In this document: positions 1 through 6,689 of the stretch, piece after piece | Layout of the letters: each line of letters starts with the position of its first letter | Position numbering within the stretch: position 1 is the stretch's first letter | IMG/VR virus record: IMGVR_UViG_2667527657_000005 | DNA: 6,689 nt | Origin: a virus | Lineage: Duplodnaviria > Heunggongvirae > Uroviricota > Caudoviricetes | Direction: 5' to 3' (one strand) | Position numbers and translations under genes: made by a program | The notes under the pieces: model-generated | What the model saw: only the letters and a program-made list of their open reading frames with translations | Database searches by the model: none | What the model was told of the DNA's origin: nothing

Positions 1-45
1 CAATGGGAAATTGTTGTCGCCATTGTTCGATTAACGCGTATTTTT
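1..45 (-). CDS. IS3-family transposase OrfB, 5' end only (reached by -1 frameshift from orfA); partial at window edge
   Basis: The -1 frame relative to orfA is open from the A-run (plus ~40-46) to the window start and reads ...KKYALIEQWRQQFPI..., as expected for the start of an OrfAB fusion. Too short to confirm by itself. Confidence 0.4.
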
Positions 46-333
46 CAGCGACTCCTGTGCAAAATACGCTGTTGCTTTTTTTAATATATCGCGCTCAAGG
101 CGAGCTTCATTTAACGCCTTACGCAGTTGCAGAATTTCAGATTCCAGTTCAGCCACCGTGCGGGAACCAGGAGTACCGAGCCCTTTTCTGGCGGCGGTAA
201 CCCATTGTCCTAAAGTGCCTTCAGGAAGAGATAATCGGGAAGCGCCTTCACTGATCGAAAGTTGATTTTCAAGAACCGTTCTGACAGCTTCGGCTTTGAA
301 CTCTTTAGAGTAACGTTGGGTTTTTCTGCTCAT
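31..333 (-). CDS. IS3-family transposase OrfA (HTH DNA-binding plus leucine-zipper subunit)
   Basis: 100-aa ORF MSRKTQRYSKEFKAEAVRTV... with ATG at 333 and TAA at 31-33. N-terminal helix-turn-helix-like region and C-terminal heptad-like stretch (LESEILQLRKALNEARLERDILKKA) typical of IS3-family OrfA. An A-run (CTG AAA AAT) sits just before the stop, where -1 frameshifting into orfB normally occurs. Confidence 0.85.
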   Translation of the reverse strand: MSRKTQRYSKEFKAEAVRTVLENQLSISEGASRLSLPEGTLGQWVTAARKGLGTPGSRTVAELESEILQLRKALNEARLERDILKKATAYFAQESLKNTR

Positions 334-384
334 TATTAGCTCCTTCTGATGCCATTCTATTTCAGGAAGGAGTGTCCGTTAAAC

Positions 385-579
385 TCAGGCTACCTCACCC
401 GTCCCGGATACCGAGAACGTTTCGTCCAGCAACTGGAGAGAGTTCGACGGTGGCATCATTGCCCATGCCGGAGGCGCTGGAGGTTTCGGCTGAGGATGGC
501 ACAGGGCATTTTCCTTTGACGAGCACCCGACCACCATTATCAAGCTTGCGCCGAAGAGCATCATTTTCAGCTTTCGCAT
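385..579 (-). CDS. Rz1: Rz1-like o-spanin (outer-membrane lipoprotein) embedded in the +1 frame of Rz; 3' end runs into the IS
   Basis: ATG at 577-579. Product [44 protein letters not shown]... has a lipoprotein signal with lipobox VVGC and a proline-rich mature region, matching lambda Rz1 (MLKLKMML...VVGC...PPPPPAW). It lies wholly inside Rz in another frame. Only codons up to ~398 are native; the last ~4 codons and the stop come from IS sequence. Confidence 0.7.
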
Positions 580-799
580 CAGCTAACTCCTTCGTGTATT
601 TAGCATCGAGTGCATCAGCATCACGCTGGCGCTGCTGCATGTCAGTAATGGTTGCGTTCGCCAGCTTCAGTTCTCCGGCGTTTTTGTCGCGCTGCTCTTT
701 GTAGGTAATGGCGTTATCACGGTAATGATTAACAGCCCATGACAGGCAGACGATGATGCAGATAACCAGAGCGGAGATAATCGCGGTGACTCTGCTCAT
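395..799 (-). CDS. Rz: Rz-like i-spanin (inner-membrane spanin subunit), C-terminally truncated by the IS insertion
   Basis: ATG at 797-799 overlaps the endolysin stop (ATGA). Product [83 protein letters not shown]... has an N-terminal TM anchor and a coiled-coil periplasmic domain closely resembling lambda Rz (lambda sequence recalled from memory). The ORF ends in a TGA at 395-397 supplied by the first three bases of the IS terminus, so the native C-terminus (roughly 15-20 aa by comparison with lambda Rz, 153 aa) is missing. The six-frame track's upstream extension to 814 uses a TTG and is not favoured. Confidence 0.8.
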
Positions 800-1329
800 T
801 GATCTATCCCCCAACAGGCTAATGCGCTTTCCTGGTCACGACGAATAACCTGTCCATAGCAGTTATTTGAACGTATGCGGCAATCGCGCCCAACATCTTT
901 TATCCACCAGCGAATCGCCTCGCATGCGCCCTTACGATCACCGGCATTCAGCCGCTTATAAAACGTCGACGGGAAACACTTACCGGGGCCAATGTTATAG
1001 GGGCAAAATGACGCTATACCCGCTTTCTGGGGTTCGGTCAGAGGTACTTTAATATTGCGCTCCACCCATGCCAGCGCCTTATCACGTTCAATAGCGTTAA
1101 CCTGGTCACATTTTTCCTTCGACAGCTTCATTCCCGGTATGACAGGCTTACCATCCACCATTGTGGCACCACGACAGATGGTCCATATGCCAGAACCATC
1201 ACGGTATGCCGTTGTGTGATTACCCTCTTTTTCGTTCAGAAACTGGTCAAGTATCTGGGGAGCAGACGCGCCTGCGGCAATCAGCGCCAGAACAGCAGCC
1301 GACAGGCCGTATTTGATTTTTGCGCTCAT
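796..1329 (-). CDS. R: Phage endolysin, T4-lysozyme-like (GH24) muramidase with N-terminal signal-anchor-release (SAR) domain
   Basis: 177-aa ORF, ATG at 1327-1329. N-terminus [25 protein letters not shown] is a weakly hydrophobic Gly/Ala/Ser-rich segment typical of SAR endolysins (P21 R type). It is followed by a catalytic E...D...T arrangement ([18 protein letters not shown]) as in lysozyme-family endolysins. From memory it strongly resembles the E. coli cryptic-prophage lysozyme RrrQ; unverified. Sits between holin and Rz as expected. Confidence 0.9.
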
Positions 1330-1394
1330 GGATATTTATCAGGATTTATCGGCAACAAATAACGAGCCAACTTATATACGCCTTTTAAGATAAG

Positions 1395-2024
1395 TCAGCC
1401 CCGGCTGGATCCAGTCATCAGGCTCTTTCTTAAAGGGGGAGTATTGAAATCACGAAGAAGAGCCTCCCGCACCGCAGCATCCATGTCTGCACCACTGGCA
1501 AGTGCTTCAATCTCTGCCGCCACCTGCAAATACCCCATGCAACGGCCAATGCGTTTCATAACTCTGGTGTTTTCGTCTTTCAGGCATCTGATAGCGAGAT
1601 TAATAATTTTCAGGCAGTGATGATGCGATGCCCGGACAGGTTTTCCGTTCTCATAAACGACGAACTCACCCTCTTCACAGGAAACCCTGAAAGGCCGATG
1701 GGGTTCCTGGTCTTTATCCGGTGCAGACGCAATAAAATCACTTTTATGCTCTTCCTCTCCGGCACTGTTAACCGTAATGACGTACTCAGGCCGCAGGTAA
1801 GCCGCCTCTTTTTCTGACAATGCGGCCGGTAAAAACTTTTCCTGCAAAAACTTCATAAAAGTCTCGTGAGCGACTTTGTGGCAGTAATCGTAAATCGCCG
1901 CATAATGCTCATCGCGGCGTTTGTTTTCATCTTCAGAACTCACCAACGCCGACAATTTTTTATTAAGCTCAGTGATTTCATTTTCCAGGTGATTGAATCG
2001 CTGATTCATTTCTTCATGCTTCAT
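1395..2024 (-). CDS. Hypothetical protein (209 aa), no family recognised; inserted between holin and endolysin
   Basis: ATG at 2022-2024 lies 3 nt after the holin TAA (2028-2030) and is preceded by GGGGAGAG, giving a Shine-Dalgarno with 6-nt spacing. Uninterrupted 209-codon frame with TGA at 1395-1397. Predicted N-terminal coiled coil (MKHEEMNQRFNHLENEITELNKKLSALV...), no TM segment, His/Cys-containing C-terminal half (RASHHHCLKIINLAIRCLK). I recognise no catalytic motif. Confidence 0.7.
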   Translation of the reverse strand: MKHEEMNQRFNHLENEITELNKKLSALVSSEDENKRRDEHYAAIYDYCHKVAHETFMKFLQEKFLPAALSEKEAAYLRPEYVITVNSAGEEEHKSDFIASAPDKDQEPHRPFRVSCEEGEFVVYENGKPVRASHHHCLKIINLAIRCLKDENTRVMKRIGRCMGYLQVAAEIEALASGADMDAAVREALLRDFNTPPLRKSLMTGSSRG

Positions 2025-2027
2025 TAT

Positions 2028-2243
2028 TTACTCTCCCCGTGCAGCCTTACGCTTGTCTTCTCTTATTTTGAAATACAGATTCGTCAGATAAGTCAGAAGC
2101 CCCAGAAGCAGACTTCCCAGCACACCAATCGCAGCCCACTGTGATGGCCTGACCTGATCCAACCACTGCAAAAACCAGTAGCCGGCACTGCCGGCGGAGG
2201 TGCCGTAGGCAATGCCCGTTGAAATTTTGTCCATGGATTTCAT
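2028..2243 (-). CDS. S: Class II holin / pinholin of the phage 21 S (S21) family, with dual-start motif
   Basis: 71-aa [74 protein letters not shown]. Two hydrophobic helices and a charged C-terminal tail. Starts at Met1 and Met4 (MKSM) match the S21-71 antiholin / S21-68 holin arrangement. Strong Shine-Dalgarno GGAGGTGA upstream of the ATG at 2241-2243. Pairs with the SAR endolysin downstream. Confidence 0.88.
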
Positions 2244-2403
2244 AGCCTCACCTCCGCAAATAACGGATGGCGTAGTTTTACACTGAGAAATGAAAGGGAT
2301 TTGAAAAGAAAAAAACGCAAAAGCGGGCGAAACGATATATACAGTAAGGAAAGCACTCTATCCAACAAACCACCCACAGTTAATCGGAATAAAAGCAGAG
2401 TGC

Positions 2404-2476
2404 TTATGAATGATCGCACGCCCGAAGGTTAGTATTTCTGCACAGCAATTTTGCAAAAAAAGGCGATCATTCATAA
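2404..2476. repeat. Perfect 14-bp inverted repeat (TTATGAATGATCGC / GCGATCATTCATAA) with 45-bp spacer, in non-coding DNA
   Basis: Read directly: arms at 2404-2417 and 2463-2476, each containing a GATC. Flanked by two further hairpin-capable inverted repeats (2351-2359/2397-2405 and 2484-2494/2519-2529). Confidence 0.65.
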
Positions 2477-2535
2477 CTTAAACGTCTTTCAGTCACTCCG
2501 GGATTTCCCATCATCGCAGACTGAAAGACTCTGAC

Positions 2536-2610
<75 letters not shown>

Positions 2611-2613
2611 ATA

Positions 2614-2689
<76 letters not shown>

Positions 2690-2691
2690 GC

Positions 2692-2768
2692 TGGCCCACC
2701 ACCGAGGACTCGAACCTCGCACCGTCAACTTAGAAGGTTGATGCTCTATCCGGATGAGCTAGTGGTGG
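2692..2768 (-). tRNA. tRNA-Arg (anticodon UCU, reads AGA)
   Basis: Reverse complement CCACCACTAGCTCATCCGGATAGAGCATCAACCTTCTAAGTTGACGGTGCGAGGTTCGAGTCCTCGGTGGTGGGCCA. Perfect 7-bp acceptor stem (C1-G72), anticodon stem TCAAC/GTTGA with loop CTTCTAA, T stem CGAGG/CCTCG, encoded CCA. A rare-codon tRNA of the kind carried by lambdoid/Stx-type phages downstream of Q. Confidence 0.8.
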
Positions 2769-2769
2769 T

Positions 2770-2846
2770 TGGTGGCCCTTGCTGGACTTGAACCAGCGAC
2801 CTGGCGATTATGAGTCGCTCGCTCTGACCAACTGAGCTAAAGGGCC
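2770..2846 (-). tRNA. tRNA with CAU anticodon, most likely tRNA-Ile2 (lysidine-modified, reads AUA); tRNA-Met not excluded
   Basis: Reverse complement GGCCCTTTAGCTCAGTTGGTCAGAGCGAGCGACTCATAATCGCCAGGTCGCTGGTTCAAGTCCAGCAAGGGCCACCA. Acceptor GGCCCTT/AAGGGCC, anticodon loop CTCATAA, T-loop TTCAAGT, encoded CCA. Very similar to E. coli ileX/ileY-type tRNA-Ile2 from memory, and in the position of ileZ in Stx-type phages. Confidence 0.8.
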
Positions 2847-2865
2847 GGAGGCAGAATAATAACCA

Positions 2866-2904
2866 TATGTCATCACATCTGCAAACTCATCTGACCACCA
2901 GCGT
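2866..2904 (-). promoter_or_regulatory. Putative sigma70 promoter for the tRNA array
   Basis: Minus strand reads TTGCAG - 17 nt (ATGTGATGACATATGGT) - TATTAT - 9 nt - tRNA 5' end. The -35 matches TTGACA at 4/6 and the -10 matches TATAAT at 5/6 with ideal spacing. Sequence-only prediction. Confidence 0.4.
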
Positions 2905-2932
2905 GTTTAACGTCCTGTACCGTTTTTCAGGC

Positions 2933-2960
2933 ATAAAAAACCCGCCCGGAGGCGGGTTTA
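2933..2960 (-). terminator. Rho-independent terminator, candidate tR' (late terminator downstream of Q)
   Basis: Perfect 6-bp GC stem CCCGCC/GGCGGG (2941-2946 / 2951-2956) with 4-nt loop, followed on the minus strand by a six-U run (plus 2935-2940 AAAAAA). Located ~85 nt downstream of the Q stop, where lambdoid phages place tR'. Confidence 0.6.
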
Positions 2961-3045
2961 AGCTGTGTGGCGAAGCAACCACTCTTAACAGAATATCCCG
3001 TTTTTTACGTACGTAAAATATTTTCTAGAAAGTCGCCCCTTACCA

Positions 3046-3426
3046 TCAGGGATGTTCAATATATTTGTCCATTTCTAACCGGACACCCAACATCATCAAC
3101 ATTCCTTCCACCACCCCCTCGGCTTTTTGTAGCTTCTTTCCTATATAACCATCTGAGCATCCATGCTTCCGCGCCAGCGTCATGAATGTCATCCCAAACA
3201 CGTAGTAGTCAACCAGCAAGTCATGTAGATCGTTGTTGTTCCGGTTAAGGCGGGCCATACACCCACATATAACCATCGCGTCATCGTCACAGCATTGCGG
3301 GCGGGATTTTACTTTTGAAGGGATTAATCCCTTAAAACCGGCAGCAATGGACGACCAGGTCACATCCTCATGATTATTAGCCACCCACGCGCCCCAGCGC
3401 TCAAGAACCTGCTGAATATCACGCAT
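3046..3426 (-). CDS. Q: Late-gene antiterminator Q (phage 82 / QuuD-like family)
   Basis: Product [60 protein letters not shown]... carries the conserved PQCCDDDA segment and ~126-aa length of 82-type Q proteins; resembles E. coli QuuD as I remember it. ATG at 3424-3426 overlaps the end of ninH (ATGCGTGA). The six-frame extension to 3462 starts at a TTG with no Shine-Dalgarno and is not favoured. Confidence 0.85.
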
Positions 3427-3619
3427 CACTGTCTTTACCCCTGTCCCATCCACGATGAACAATCAGAACACCATCAACAATGGCGTGCCCTTTGCCCTCT
3501 TTATCTTCAGCATATTTTCTTACCGTGGCGCGATTACAGTTCAGCATTCGTGAAACTTCGGTCATATTACCTCGTGTCTGGATAAGCAGTTCCGGTATCG
3601 TTTGAATTTTGACGCTCAT
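3419..3619 (-). CDS. ninH: NinH-like small DNA-binding protein
   Basis: Product [61 protein letters not shown]... is closely similar to lambda NinH (MTFSVKTIPDMLVEAYGNQTEVARRLKCSRGTVRKYVDDKDGKMHAIVNDVLMVHRGW, recalled) and has the same position immediately upstream of Q. ATG at 3617-3619 preceded by GGAGAG; the track's start at 3622 is a TTG. Confidence 0.82.
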
Positions 3620-3713
3620 CAAATACTCTCCGGTTCGGTGATTTTTATCCCGGGCTTTCCACCAGGGACATAATGATCGCGCACAAGCCAGGGCAAAACA
3701 AACTCATGGCGCA

Positions 3714-3971
3714 TCAGCGCAGCGCCTCCTGCACCAGTTTTTCAAACTTTCCGACTCTGGTTTCCAGCTCTGCCACACAGTCCACCAGCTCATCTACTGC
3801 TTTCTGTGCGCGATGCTTCGCCTGCATCAGTTCCCGAAGCGCGGGTACCATATCTTTACGGATAGCATCTTTTGTTATGCCCGTTTTTTCGAGTTGTTCA
3901 GCATGACGCAGCATTTCCTGCGCGTGTTTACGCAATTGTTCAGGGGTAAAAGTCATTGTCTGGTTGTTCAA
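3714..3971 (-). CDS. Hypothetical small protein (80-85 aa), predicted all-helical; nin-region gene of unknown function
   Basis: ORF MNNQTMTFTPEQLRKHAQEMLRHAEQLEKTGITKDAIRKDMVPALRELMQAKHRAQKAVDELVDCVAELETRVGKFEKLVQEALR. A TTG start at 3969-3971 overlaps the helicase TGA (TTGA) and has GGAG 7 nt upstream; an alternative ATG at 3954-3956 lacks a Shine-Dalgarno. No family recognised. Real coding status is moderately supported by operon context only. Confidence 0.55.
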   Translation of the reverse strand: MNNQTMTFTPEQLRKHAQEMLRHAEQLEKTGITKDAIRKDMVPALRELMQAKHRAQKAVDELVDCVAELETRVGKFEKLVQEALR

Positions 3972-5359
3972 AAGAAACGCTCCATCTTACTGCTGTCAGT
4001 TCGTTTATTACTGTATCTGCGCGGATTGCCGGGCTTCATGGGAGTGGAAAGCACCCGTGCACTTTCCTGGTCCACAGGCAGAAAATGTCCGTTATAAAAA
4101 CGCCGGTAAATCGTTCCCAGAGAACCGTTACGTTGTTTCGTGATATTGATTTCTGCGATGCCCCTGGCCTGCGTATCCGGGTTGTACACTTCATCCCTGT
4201 AAAGCATCAGAATGATGTCTGCATCCGCCTCTATTTCTCCGGAATTTTTCAGGTCTGAGTTCATGGGACGTTTATTGGGTCTGGACTCCACACCGCGGGA
4301 GAGCTGGCTCAGCGCAATCAACGGAAAACCACCGGATTTTGCCAGGCCTTTAAGCCCCTTTGAGATTTCACCCACGGCAAGGTCATGACGCCCCGTGGTT
4401 CGGGTTTTTATCAGCCCGAGATAATCAACCACCACCAGCGCCGTTTCCGGATATTTAATCAGGTGGTGTTTCGTTGTTGCGCATATCTCATCAATGGCCA
4501 GGTTCGCCTGGTCCACCATCCAGATATTGCGCCCGGTCATCCGCCCCACCCCTTGTGAGAAACGCGTCCAGTCTTCATCTTCAAAGTGAGCCACAGATTT
4601 CAGGCGTGATACTGGCATCCCTCCAGCCGCAGACACCATACGTTCACCAATCTGGATGTTCGCCATCTCCATGGTGAACAGAAGCACACCATGCCCCTGC
4701 TCAGTCACCTTGTCGATGATGTCCAGCGCAAGTTCGGTTTTCCCCATCGAAGGACGGGCGGCAATGAATACCAGGTCTCCGGGCTCCATACCGCCTGTTT
4801 TTGCGTCCAGTTCATCAATACCGGTCATCAACGTCCTGGATTTCTCCAGCCCCTGATTCCGGCATTCAACACGCTCAACCACTTCCGGAAGCACATCATC
4901 AATATGTACCGGCTGAATGACGCCCTTTCCTGTCGACAGTGTGACCATCATGTTCTGCGCATCCTTCAGGGCATCTTCAGCTGCTTCACAGGTATGCGCA
5001 TCACGTAATTTCTGCAGCGCCTCATTCAGTGTTTTTTCTGCATCGCGCAGTGCGGCATTGCGCCGCAACGCTGCAACATAGTGCTCCAGTGAAGACTTCA
5101 CCCAGGTTTTACGCCCGGTATCAGTAATCACCGGGGCAAGTTCCGGCATCTCATTACACAACAGCACGGGGTCAATCACTCCTGAAACACGGGCCTGTCT
5201 GCAGATGCCTGTATAGATATCCTGATACGCTCGTACAGAAAAAACGTCCGCTGGCAGTGTGGCCAGAATATCCATCACTTCAGGATCTGCTCCGCGCAGA
5301 AAGAACGCGCCGATGACAGCGCCTTCAAGGTCATCGTTACGCCATACTGGAGTTGTCAT
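3968..5359 (-). CDS. dnaB: Replicative DNA helicase, DnaB family (phage-encoded, P22 gene 12-like)
   Basis: 463-aa ORF with Walker A FIAARPSMGKTELALD, Walker B-like LVVVDYLGLI and DnaB-type N-terminal and C-terminal RecA-like domains. ATG at 5357-5359 overlaps the dnaC-like stop (ATGA). Confidence 0.9.
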   Translation of the reverse strand: MTTPVWRNDDLEGAVIGAFFLRGADPEVMDILATLPADVFSVRAYQDIYTGICRQARVSGVIDPVLLCNEMPELAPVITDTGRKTWVKSSLEHYVAALRRNAALRDAEKTLNEALQKLRDAHTCEAAEDALKDAQNMMVTLSTGKGVIQPVHIDDVLPEVVERVECRNQGLEKSRTLMTGIDELDAKTGGMEPGDLVFIAARPSMGKTELALDIIDKVTEQGHGVLLFTMEMANIQIGERMVSAAGGMPVSRLKSVAHFEDEDWTRFSQGVGRMTGRNIWMVDQANLAIDEICATTKHHLIKYPETALVVVDYLGLIKTRTTGRHDLAVGEISKGLKGLAKSGGFPLIALSQLSRGVESRPNKRPMNSDLKNSGEIEADADIILMLYRDEVYNPDTQARGIAEINITKQRNGSLGTIYRRFYNGHFLPVDQESARVLSTPMKPGNPRRYSNKRTDSSKMERFF

Positions 5360-6234
5360 GCAGCCACACCTCTGATACGAGAACGGTAACTGGGCCAGTT
5401 AAACGACAACCAGTTGCGTCCCCCGTCTGTGATCCTGTCGGCAATTCGGGGACTGATGAACGCCCACAACTCTTCCGGTGAGAGGTTACTGATCAGAATG
5501 GTGGGCAAGATACTTTCGTACCTGGCGTTGATAATTTCCTGCAAAATAGCCATTTCAGCCGCGCTGCCAAACTGAACGCCAACTTCGTCGATGATCAGCA
5601 AATCCATTGACGCATAACGCTCAATAACTTCATCCGCTGTTTTTTCGCTGTCATTCCGCCAGCAATTTTTCACAGCACGGGTAAGGCGCATCACGTCGGT
5701 GATCTCCACACTGGCCAGATAGTTACGGATGATGTGTTTTGCCATAGCCACAGCCAGATGATTTTTTCCGGTACCACAACTGCCGGTCATAACAAGACTG
5801 GTACCGTTCTCCAGCATATCTGGCCAGTTCTCCGCATAGCGGCGACAGGCCGCAAGATTTCTGGCTGCGCCAGGATTAACCTCCAGATAATTATCAAACT
5901 CGCAGTCCCGAAAACGCAGGGCAATTCCGGCGTTATCAGTCAGCTCTTCCGCCTTGATGGACGACAGCTCCATGGTCAAATCGTTGGCCTCAGCGATTAA
6001 GCAGTCAGGGCAGCATGAAATTTCTTCTCTGTCCTCGCCATTACGATCGCTCCACACCAGTATATGCGTGTGATATTCGCCATGTTTTTCGCAATATCCG
6101 CGACCTTCACGCATCAGGCAGGAACGATAAGGCCATGGCTTTTCGCCCTTCTGAGCAAATGCAATCTCTGCCCGTAACTCATCCATTCGCGCCTGTAGTC
6201 TTTTTTGTTGTTCACGCAGGTTAAACGTCATCAT
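5356..6234 (-). CDS. dnaC: DnaC-like helicase loader (AAA+ ATPase, DnaC/IstB family) with Cys-rich N-terminal module
   Basis: Walker A GSCGTGKNHLAVAMA shares the unusual GTGKNHLA P-loop of E. coli DnaC. Walker B DLLIIDEVGVQ and C-terminal LSFNWPSYRSRI closely resemble DnaC (IFNWDSYRSRV, recalled). Start assigned to the ATG at 6232-6234, preceded by GAGGTG with 7-nt spacing. The longer ORF to 6327 in the track crosses into IS sequence and is an artefact. Confidence 0.85.
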   Translation of the reverse strand: MMTFNLREQQKRLQARMDELRAEIAFAQKGEKPWPYRSCLMREGRGYCEKHGEYHTHILVWSDRNGEDREEISCCPDCLIAEANDLTMELSSIKAEELTDNAGIALRFRDCEFDNYLEVNPGAARNLAACRRYAENWPDMLENGTSLVMTGSCGTGKNHLAVAMAKHIIRNYLASVEITDVMRLTRAVKNCWRNDSEKTADEVIERYASMDLLIIDEVGVQFGSAAEMAILQEIINARYESILPTILISNLSPEELWAFISPRIADRITDGGRNWLSFNWPSYRSRIRGVAA

Positions 6235-6254
6235 CGCTGTCACCTCAGAATGTC

Positions 6255-6689
6255 TGAAGTGGCACACTGAATTTGGCCACCTGAACAGAGGTGATATGCT
6301 CACCTCAGAACAACACAGGTGCTCCAATGAAAAAAAGAAATTTTAGCGCAGAGTTTAAACGCGAATCCGCTCAACTGGTTGTTGACCAGAAATACACGGT
6401 GGCAGATGCCGCCAAAGCTATGGATGTTGGCCTTTCCACAATGACAAGATGGGTCAAACAACTGCGTGATGAGCGTCAGGGCAAAACACCAAAAGCCTCC
6501 CCCATTACCCCGGAACAAATTGAAATCCGTGTGGGCATTTCAGGCATGAGAACAGACTCGCGTTTTTCCGGAGTATCAGCGGAATTATTGATTAAGAAAC
6601 ACTCGACGCAGAGCGAAATTTTATGCAACAGCGGCTGCACTGCACAGGGATTATTTATCAGTTGATATGCTGTGCCATGATACGTCCTA
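6255..6689 (+). mobile_element. IS3-family insertion sequence (IS911-like), left end and rearranged orfA; continues to or beyond the window end
   Basis: Terminus begins TGAAGTGGCACACTGAATTTGGCCACC at ~6255 (TG-initiated IS3-family end), followed 72 nt later by an orfA whose first 67 residues match IS911 OrfA as remembered. Sequence after ~6528 no longer matches OrfA, so there is an internal deletion or a second rearrangement. Confidence 0.7.
6327..6665 (+). pseudogene. IS911-like transposase OrfA, disrupted: N-terminal ~67 aa intact, C-terminus replaced by unrelated sequence
   Basis: [68 protein letters not shown] matches IS911 OrfA (recalled). It then continues [14 protein letters not shown]... 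instead of the expected leucine-zipper segment (ELRKKLQRIEMENEILKKA...). The track's ORF start at 6291 is a GTG upstream of the authentic ATG at 6327. Confidence 0.6.

Follow-up and report, generated by a model that had tools for sequence, protein, structure and literature searches.

In the Qin prophage of Escherichia coli K-12, the gene ydfR lies between essQ and rrrQ, that is, between an S21-type holin and a signal-anchor-release (SAR) lysozyme in a lambdoid late operon. Its product, a protein of 103 amino acids (aa) made up of DUF1327 only, was recovered in a bacterial adenylate cyclase two-hybrid (BACTH) screen and binds the N-terminal half/catalytic domain of RNase E, for which residues 1-72 of YdfR are sufficient (PMC13232886). 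YdfR also co-purifies with Rne(1-598) and DNase-resistant nucleic acid (PMC13232886). The pinholin/SAR-endolysin cassette is the lysis system in almost all Shiga toxin (Stx)-converting phages (PMC8136144). Here we describe an open reading frame (ORF) of 209 codons that occupies the slot of ydfR in a 6,689-nt stretch of Caudoviricetes DNA (IMG/VR record IMGVR_UViG_2667527657_000005), the whole of which is referred to below as the window. A sequence-only reading of the window had singled out this ORF as an uncharacterised gene and had pointed to ydfR at the equivalent position in Qin, which the K-12 reference layout confirms. We find that the ORF truly codes for protein and that it belongs to a small family not described before. 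Its product is a homologue of the undescribed C-terminal module of long YdfR-family proteins, encoded in the YdfR slot; it represents the DUF1327-less form of the slot gene of pinholin cassettes.

Non-essential accessory lysis regulators encoded in or near the holin-endolysin cassette include LydB of P1, LysA/LysB of P2 and RI of T4. The window gene is similar to these in cassette position and non-essentiality, but its product shares no sequence or fold similarity with them, and no membrane or periplasmic targeting signal was found in it.

A genuine gene outside the Pfam YdfR family

The ORF has exactly the coordinates given by the sequence-only reading and lies on the minus strand, which that reading had left unstated.

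1395-2024, minus strand: slot-gene ORF, 209 aa, ATG start, soluble product with a pI of ~6.1 and a mass of ~24 kDa; DUF1327-less short form

A word-indexed search of 5.8 billion proteins returned 132 relatives at E <= 1e-3, and at the same threshold a profile run without filters against 1.84 billion representative proteins returned only 43. The relatives form two groups, one of 185-222 aa with the architecture of the window protein and one of 259-333 aa, designated "YdfR family", with an N-terminal PF07041. Among the PHROGs v4 profiles, the window protein has a strong match (1.2e-73) in phrog_1085, a profile of unknown function, of whose 296 positions only 117-288 are covered; the first 116 positions, representing DUF1327, are absent from the protein, and the last 8 were lost through a frameshift. 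When the window gene, with its frame repaired, was compared codon by codon with 12 diverged alleles, the ratio of nonsynonymous to synonymous substitution rates (dN/dS) was 0.21-0.35 overall, which indicates purifying selection on the protein. By part, dN/dS was 0.19-0.30 in the C-terminal domain (CTD), 0.4-1.3 in the linker and 0.23-0.50 in the N-terminal module. With more than 130 homologues, the phrog_1085 match and the low dN/dS, the ORF is beyond chance.

The DUF1327-family test proposed in the sequence-only reading was negative for the window protein itself, although long DUF1327 proteins carry a homologue of it as their C-terminal extension. No PF07041 match was obtained even at E <= 0.1, BLASTP against K-12 YdfR gave no significant alignment, and the RNase E-binding residues 1-72 of YdfR have no counterpart. 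As PF07041 is not detected in it, the window protein is outside the DUF1327/YdfR family as Pfam defines it. Long forms used as controls gave PF07041 at 1e-35 to 1e-44 over their residues 1-100, where DUF1327 lies, and their remaining ~200 residues are without any Pfam model. The modules of the window protein make up the C-terminal two-thirds of long YdfR-family proteins (268-333 aa) at up to 82% identity, the highest value being that of the PF07041-bearing P0004 (333 aa), which covers 94% of the window protein. This homology extends over the full length of the coiled coil, linker and CTD. Since Pfam covers only residues 1-100, the window protein corresponds to the unmodelled C-terminal two-thirds of the long forms.

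The gene is indeed uncharacterised. No Pfam, NCBIfam or PADLOC match was found for the window protein, its homologues in Stx phages and Salmonella are annotated as hypothetical, and the literature on DUF1327, on ydfR/essQ/rrrQ and on Stx lysis cassettes yielded no study of the slot gene, the Stx-phage genomics papers being without mention of it. Scans of 51 diverse members, one by one, against Pfam, NCBIfam and PADLOC gave nothing consistent save DUF1327 in the long forms. Weak matches to EzrA, Relaxase_C, ABC_tran_CTD and EAD9, obtained with the window protein and the 51 members singly, were regarded as generic coiled-coil noise.

That the ORF is spurious, or is nothing more than a pseudogene left by N-terminal truncation of a long YdfR-family gene, is very improbable and largely refuted. 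Such an origin would account for the match to phrog_1085 being restricted to positions 117-288, for the 82% identity to DUF1327-bearing long forms and for the 3' frameshift of the window copy, but the short forms have a conserved start of their own (MNHEEMNQRF...), placed like that of the long forms 3 nt past the holin stop. They are also the majority: among 92 loci fetched through the conserved C-terminal domain (CTD loci), 77 contain short forms without DUF1327 (185, 209, 213, 217 or 222 aa) and 13 contain genes with DUF1327 or a DUF1327-like N-terminus, and the N-terminal module is under purifying selection. Truncation was thus rejected for the 5' end, as a majority architecture with its own conserved N-terminus is not a product of decay. 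The sequence-only reading had named decay from a larger gene as evidence that would count against it, and such decay is seen in the 3' frameshift and the broken prophage but not in the absence of DUF1327.

Protein architecture

The family is modular, consisting of an optional N-terminal DUF1327, a helical hairpin/coiled coil, a variable linker and a CTD of ~110 aa. The window protein contains the last three, with structural assignments from AlphaFold2 (AF2) and its predicted local distance difference test (pLDDT).

1833-2018, minus strand: N-terminal helical hairpin/coiled coil, aa 3-64, AF2 helices 3-26 and 31-64
1698-1832, minus strand: variable linker, aa 65-109, pLDDT <50 at residues 74-109 and gaps in the alignment
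1425-1697, minus strand: in-frame part of the CTD, aa 110-200, beta-meander and helices with the motifs H136, GRCMGYLQVAAEIE and NTPP

The two AF2 helices and a heptad-like pattern in the N-terminal helix (F10/L13/I17/L20/L24) bear out the coiled coil predicted in the sequence-only reading. The absence of a membrane segment was likewise correct, as the maximum Kyte-Doolittle (KD) average over 19 residues is 0.76 for the window protein versus 1.75 for the holin. In terms of lysis-protein features, no transmembrane or SAR segment and no lysis-category Pfam or PHROG match was found. The N-terminal module is also fused behind DUF1327 in other prophages, and matches to this module only were obtained in Stx1a/Stx2a and PhiR12 phages and with phrog_2091, phrog_36381 and phrog_15975. 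Insertions and deletions in the linker set apart the 185-, 209-, 213- and 217-aa forms.

The CTD is a conserved domain without known relatives. A shallow alignment of E. coli sequences only gave an AF2 model with a pLDDT of 49, which was unusable, while 51 sequences including Salmonella gave a confident CTD. In the model of P0002, the closest intact relative, the CTD spans residues 110-217 with a pLDDT of 77-87 and combines a beta-meander of three strands with four helices, the final one at 203-216. The domain signature is H-x23-GRCMGYLQVAAEIE and NPPFK-x4-W-x2-PG-x2-YLK-x-R, and H136, G160, R161, G164, L166, Q167, P197, W205, P208, G209, Y212, L213 and R216 are (near-)invariant in the 51 members. 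Structure prediction and structural search, both suggested in the sequence-only reading, differed in outcome: the CTD could be confidently modelled, but Foldseek gave no fold match (best E 1.4 in the PDB and 0.25 in BFVD). A new fold is expected for the CTD. The best sequence-profile match in the PDB, a PARP-1 fragment at E 0.048, was dismissed as noise.

The HHHC run (residues 134-137) and the five cysteines pointed out in the sequence-only reading are present but do not form a conserved motif. Only H136 of the run is invariant; across the 51 members C137 is usually S or R and position 162 is C, S or A, and the run and cysteines are kept only among close E. coli alleles. Metal binding through these residues was rejected because only H136 is invariant.

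Occupancy of the holin-lysozyme slot

The slot gene is flanked by the two lysis genes, and the DNA exchanged between them can be delimited precisely.

2028-2243, minus strand: S21-type pinholin (PF04971, 5.5e-35; phrog_9876 and phrog_20, holin), dual-start motif MKSM
796-1329, minus strand: SAR-type lysozyme, R21-like (PF00959, 5e-24), hydrophobic N-terminus, KD 1.78
1353-2020, minus strand: cassette-specific DNA, flanks ~95% identical to YdfR-type loci, segment itself unrelated

The holin stop TAA is followed by 3 nt (ATA) and then by the slot-gene ATG, which has its own Shine-Dalgarno sequence, GGGGAGAG, 7-8 nt upstream, as described in the sequence-only reading. YdfR-type genes start in the same manner, 3-4 nt past the holin stop. 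Between the slot-gene stop and the lysozyme ATG there are 65 nt (spacer 1330-1394). A promoter/terminator consensus scan revealed no site separating the slot gene from the late operon, and, judged from position, late co-expression with the lysis genes and release by lysis are plausible. The holin begins with MKSMDK..., the dual-start arrangement (Met1/Met4) of the phage 21 S21 71/68 antiholin/holin pair; given this dual start, the window cassette already encodes its own antiholin.

Slot occupancy was surveyed in 74 viral contigs whose holin is >=90% identical to that of the window. A DUF1327-family gene lies between holin and lysozyme in 47 contigs, and in the longer slots DUF1327 is followed by varied C-terminal modules, often with a small convergent ORF in addition. 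In the remaining 27, holin and lysozyme are directly adjacent with nothing between them, for which reason the slot gene appears dispensable for lysis itself. Alignment of the window with two YdfR-type loci (L005 and L006) by blastn gave homology at 399-1352 and 2021-2863 only, so that the boundaries of the cassette lie at the holin stop and ~23 nt before the lysozyme start. Because the flanks are ~95% identical and the DNA between them is unrelated, the slot occupant is exchanged as a sharp-bounded cassette.

The sequence-only reading had suggested a recurrent cargo site and had proposed a synteny comparison of the junction. The slot is recurrently occupied in enterobacterial prophages and its occupancy varies, but assorted cargo was not seen in the cassettes sampled. 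All CTD-bearing genes found belong to one modular family, and a slot that is either empty (27/74) or filled by a single modular family is not a general cargo site.

Replacement as a cassette with sharp boundaries, together with a patchy distribution, is also what would be seen for a moron that acts in the lysogen, for example by excluding superinfecting phages or in anti-phage defence, or for an anti-host factor with no connection to lysis, and the late region is the zone of lambdoid morons (stx, nanS-p and, by the Salmonella homologue described below, ArtAB-like toxin genes). We nevertheless find such a role improbable. PADLOC-DB 2.0 gave no match for the window protein and only scattered matches at E>0.01, within noise, for the 51 members, which leaves the superinfection/defence role considered in the sequence-only reading without support from these scans. 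Moreover, no promoter- or terminator-like site sets the gene apart from the late operon, and a start coupled to the holin stop implies late expression only.

Distribution and linkage to the pinholin cassette

The family is confined to lambdoid prophages of Escherichia, Shigella and Salmonella with an S21-type pinholin and a SAR lysozyme. In a set of one genome per species (185,579 species), the CTD was found only in E. coli, S. flexneri and an Escherichia sp., and many further members, Salmonella enterica proteins annotated without exception as hypothetical, came from a profile search of a larger collection. The gene order is holin-gene-lysozyme in all E. coli/Shigella CTD loci. In Salmonella the order is gene, small convergent ORF, PF04971 holin, lysozyme and Rz, and the proteins there consist of a DUF1327-like N-terminus, the coiled coil and the CTD. 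Because the gene precedes the holin in Salmonella, it does not depend on the S-R junction itself; even with this changed position, it was linked to the pinholin cassette in every locus examined.

Short-form homologues in Stx-converting phages occupy the same slot as the window gene, examples being BCI98956.1 (213 aa) of Stx2a phage Stx2_12E129 and gp05 (268 aa) of Stx2 phage 86. They have the coiled coil and CTD at 57-63% identity to the window protein and are all annotated as hypothetical. In contrast to the window copy, they keep the C-terminal helix, and a convergent 104-aa ORF and a longer spacer separate them from R.

In one Salmonella prophage (L090 2157-3469, plus strand), the family gene lies directly downstream of a pertussis-like ADP-ribosyltransferase gene and a 106-aa ORF. 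The ADP-ribosyltransferase is PF02917/Scabin-like (E ~2e-5), and the pair resembles an ArtAB-type toxin, which puts the family in a toxin-moron neighbourhood.

The linkage raises the question of lysis timing. Soluble antagonists tune other holins, an example being LydB of P1, and a cytoplasmic protein binding the charged C-terminal tail of S21, or its antiholin form, might tune triggering in a similar way. Every member found adjoins a PF04971 pinholin, whether as S-[X]-R in E. coli or as [X]-S-R in Salmonella; the start 3 nt past the holin stop makes translational coupling probable, and the product is soluble and cytoplasmic, encoded by a gene that is accessory rather than essential, as would be expected of a regulator. 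A timing regulator is nonetheless fairly unlikely in our judgment. The protein has no similarity to known lysis proteins or to the PHROG lysis category, the fusion partner DUF1327 suggests RNase E and not the membrane, the convergent companion in many forms is unexpected for a simple timing factor, and the linkage may stem from shared recombination modules instead of function.

A convergent companion gene

A convergent ORF of ~104 aa, here called compA, follows the CTD gene in 26 of the 92 CTD loci.

L002 2993-3307, minus strand: compA example, no window counterpart
L003 3154-3468, minus strand: compA example, no window counterpart
L090 4599-4916, minus strand: compA example, no window counterpart

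The compA products of Stx phages and Salmonella are ~50% identical, with a dN/dS of 0.14-0.27, and are soluble and without a Pfam match. The 65 nt between the slot-gene stop and the lysozyme ATG leave no compA in the window, and the gene is absent from all copies of the window allele and from nearly all 185-aa forms. Other C-terminal modules are accompanied by other small convergent ORFs (86-93 aa in L004, L006, L017, L018, L035 and L088; a 90-aa type in L023). These observations suggest that the convergent partner co-varies with the C-terminal module.

In pore-forming colicin operons, the colicin gene is followed by a convergent immunity gene and a lysis gene, a layout that the loci with compA echo. 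An effector released by lysis and acting on neighbour cells, with the small convergent ORF as its immunity-like partner, would agree with the conservation of compA from Stx phages to Salmonella and with the different convergent ORFs next to other C-terminal modules, and in its succession of N-domain, helical hairpin and C-domain the protein superficially resembles a colicin. However, no toxin, translocation or receptor-binding domain was detected, compA is soluble unlike the immunity proteins of pore formers, and its absence next to the window allele and nearly all 185-aa forms means that it is not obligatory. The co-variation may also be mere linkage. We therefore rate a released effector as highly doubtful.

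The window copy is frameshifted

The window allele differs from the rest of the family at its 3' end.

1429-1439, minus strand: frameshift site CCCCCTTTAAG, where the T4 run of the family is short by one T (T-run at 1432-1434)
1372-1431, minus strand: ancestral 3' end, now out of frame, encoding KKEPDDWIQPGLTYLKRRI and a stop, the terminal helix of the CTD

The 1-nt deletion swaps the conserved tail for nine unrelated residues, SLMTGSSRG. The tail FKKEPDDWIQPGLTYLKRRI is intact in the adjacent frame and ends at the TAA at 1372-1374. The terminal motif W..PG..YLK.R (tail FKKxPxxWxxPGxxYLKxRI) is thus missing from the window protein, while it is kept in every other allele, and the terminal helix is conserved down to relatives of 25-35% identity, Salmonella included. 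The frameshifted allele was present in 16 fetched loci, among them E. coli FDAARGOS_944, E. coli ECMA0423 and Shigella flexneri SFBU1023, which rules out a sequencing error; the allele is fixed in a single prophage lineage. Fifteen copies compared base by base have an identical frameshift site and <=1 other substitution, and 6 of 5,426 complete E. coli genomes carry the window locus.

The zero-frame sequence C CCT TTA has the X XXY YYZ form of a -1 slippery heptamer, and the -1 frame yields KKEPDDWIQPGLTYLKRRI and a stop; a -1 slip would give ...TPPL-KKEPDDWIQPGLTYLKRRI and restore the conserved tail. The heptamer is probably a coincidence, since a stimulatory structure was not found after it, the downstream folds being no stabler than shuffles (z -0.04 to +0.28). 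Low-level -1 slippage at this site might still give full-length protein from the window allele.

Other alleles are disrupted as well. The allele of E. coli 2012C-4221 (L007 1660-2268) is annotated as frameshifted, and that of L124 is reduced to a 62-aa terminal ORF. As these two were disrupted independently, the family decays repeatedly in resident prophages.

The prophage is a remnant bounded by insertion sequence (IS) elements, and its Rz is truncated.

1-398, no strand assigned: end of IS600 (IS3 family) bounding the prophage remnant; positions 1-410 match IS600
385-579, minus strand: Rz1 (PF06085), embedded in Rz, last codons also removed by IS600
395-799, minus strand: Rz i-spanin gene (PF03245), 3' end cut at ~399 by IS600
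2536-2846, minus strand: four tRNA genes (Gly-tcc, Thr-tgt, Arg-tct and one with a CAT anticodon) between Q and holin
3046-3462, minus strand: antiterminator Q
6291-6665, plus strand: IS3-type orfA, just beyond a truncated DnaC-like gene

Similarity to intact prophages is confined to window positions 399-6254. On the left the 3' end of Rz was removed by IS600, and on the right the second IS3-family orfA forms the end. The same left IS junction is found in S. flexneri SFBU1023, which is 99.7% identical over window positions 21-5024, and the window therefore probably derives from a genome of Shigella flexneri type. Upstream of Q are genes for NinH, a DnaB-like helicase and a DnaC-like loader, and all neighbours of the slot gene are on the minus strand. 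A tRNA cluster between Q and holin is typical of lambdoid/Stx prophage late regions; the CAT-anticodon tRNA is labelled tRNA-Ile in a related locus (L001).

With the terminal helix lost and the prophage reduced to a remnant with a truncated Rz, the window copy is likely impaired. Most likely the allele is hypomorphic or dead and is hitch-hiking in a lineage of Shigella flexneri type.

Possible function of the intact family

With moderate confidence, our best overall explanation is a real modular family, represented here by an impaired copy, that encodes a late accessory protein. Judged from gene position and protein anatomy, the intact product most likely has an accessory role in the cytoplasm and shares its late (Q-dependent) transcript with the lysis genes. 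It would probably oligomerise through the helical hairpin, with the CTD serving as a protein-binding module.

A more specific role in the takeover of the host or its RNA metabolism, exerted with or instead of DUF1327, is the reading we prefer, though only tentatively. It is proposed from domain association: fusions of the module to DUF1327 have arisen repeatedly, and the DUF1327 protein of K-12 binds the RNase E catalytic domain and co-purifies with RNA, which argues for RNA metabolism or host takeover over envelope disruption.

Several points weigh against this explanation. Its mechanism is argued by association, and the RNase E link may not apply to the window protein since DUF1327 is wholly absent from it. 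Overexpression of YdfR altered few transcripts (PMC13232886). A lysis-related role would explain no less well why linkage to the pinholin cassette is strict and persists in Salmonella despite the new position. Regarding the impairment of the window copy, the 16 loci in which the frameshifted allele is fixed come from several strains, and its out-of-frame tail is still perfect; the allele could have kept its function, or the frameshift could simply be recent.

Beyond the late accessory protein that we prefer, the CTD may mark out a novel class of prophage effectors, expressed late and linked in function to pinholin/SAR-endolysin cassettes, those of Stx-converting phages among them. We consider this distinctly unlikely. 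Two versions may be envisaged, a cytoplasmic regulator of pinholin triggering and a released or host-takeover effector countered by the ~104-aa convergent companion.

Significance

Toxin release by Stx-converting phages depends on lysis timing, and most pinholin/SAR-endolysin cassettes contain or adjoin a conserved family under purifying selection that has no described domain, structure or literature. The present analysis provides a domain definition, a taxonomic range, a link to DUF1327/YdfR and a conserved convergent partner gene for this family. The window copy is a poor experimental subject, as it is frameshifted and resides in a dead prophage, and the window gene is a modest lead rather than a discovery. 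Many E. coli, Shigella and Salmonella prophages, some Stx phages included, carry the unstudied family in their lysis region, which makes it a reasonable target for simple genetics.

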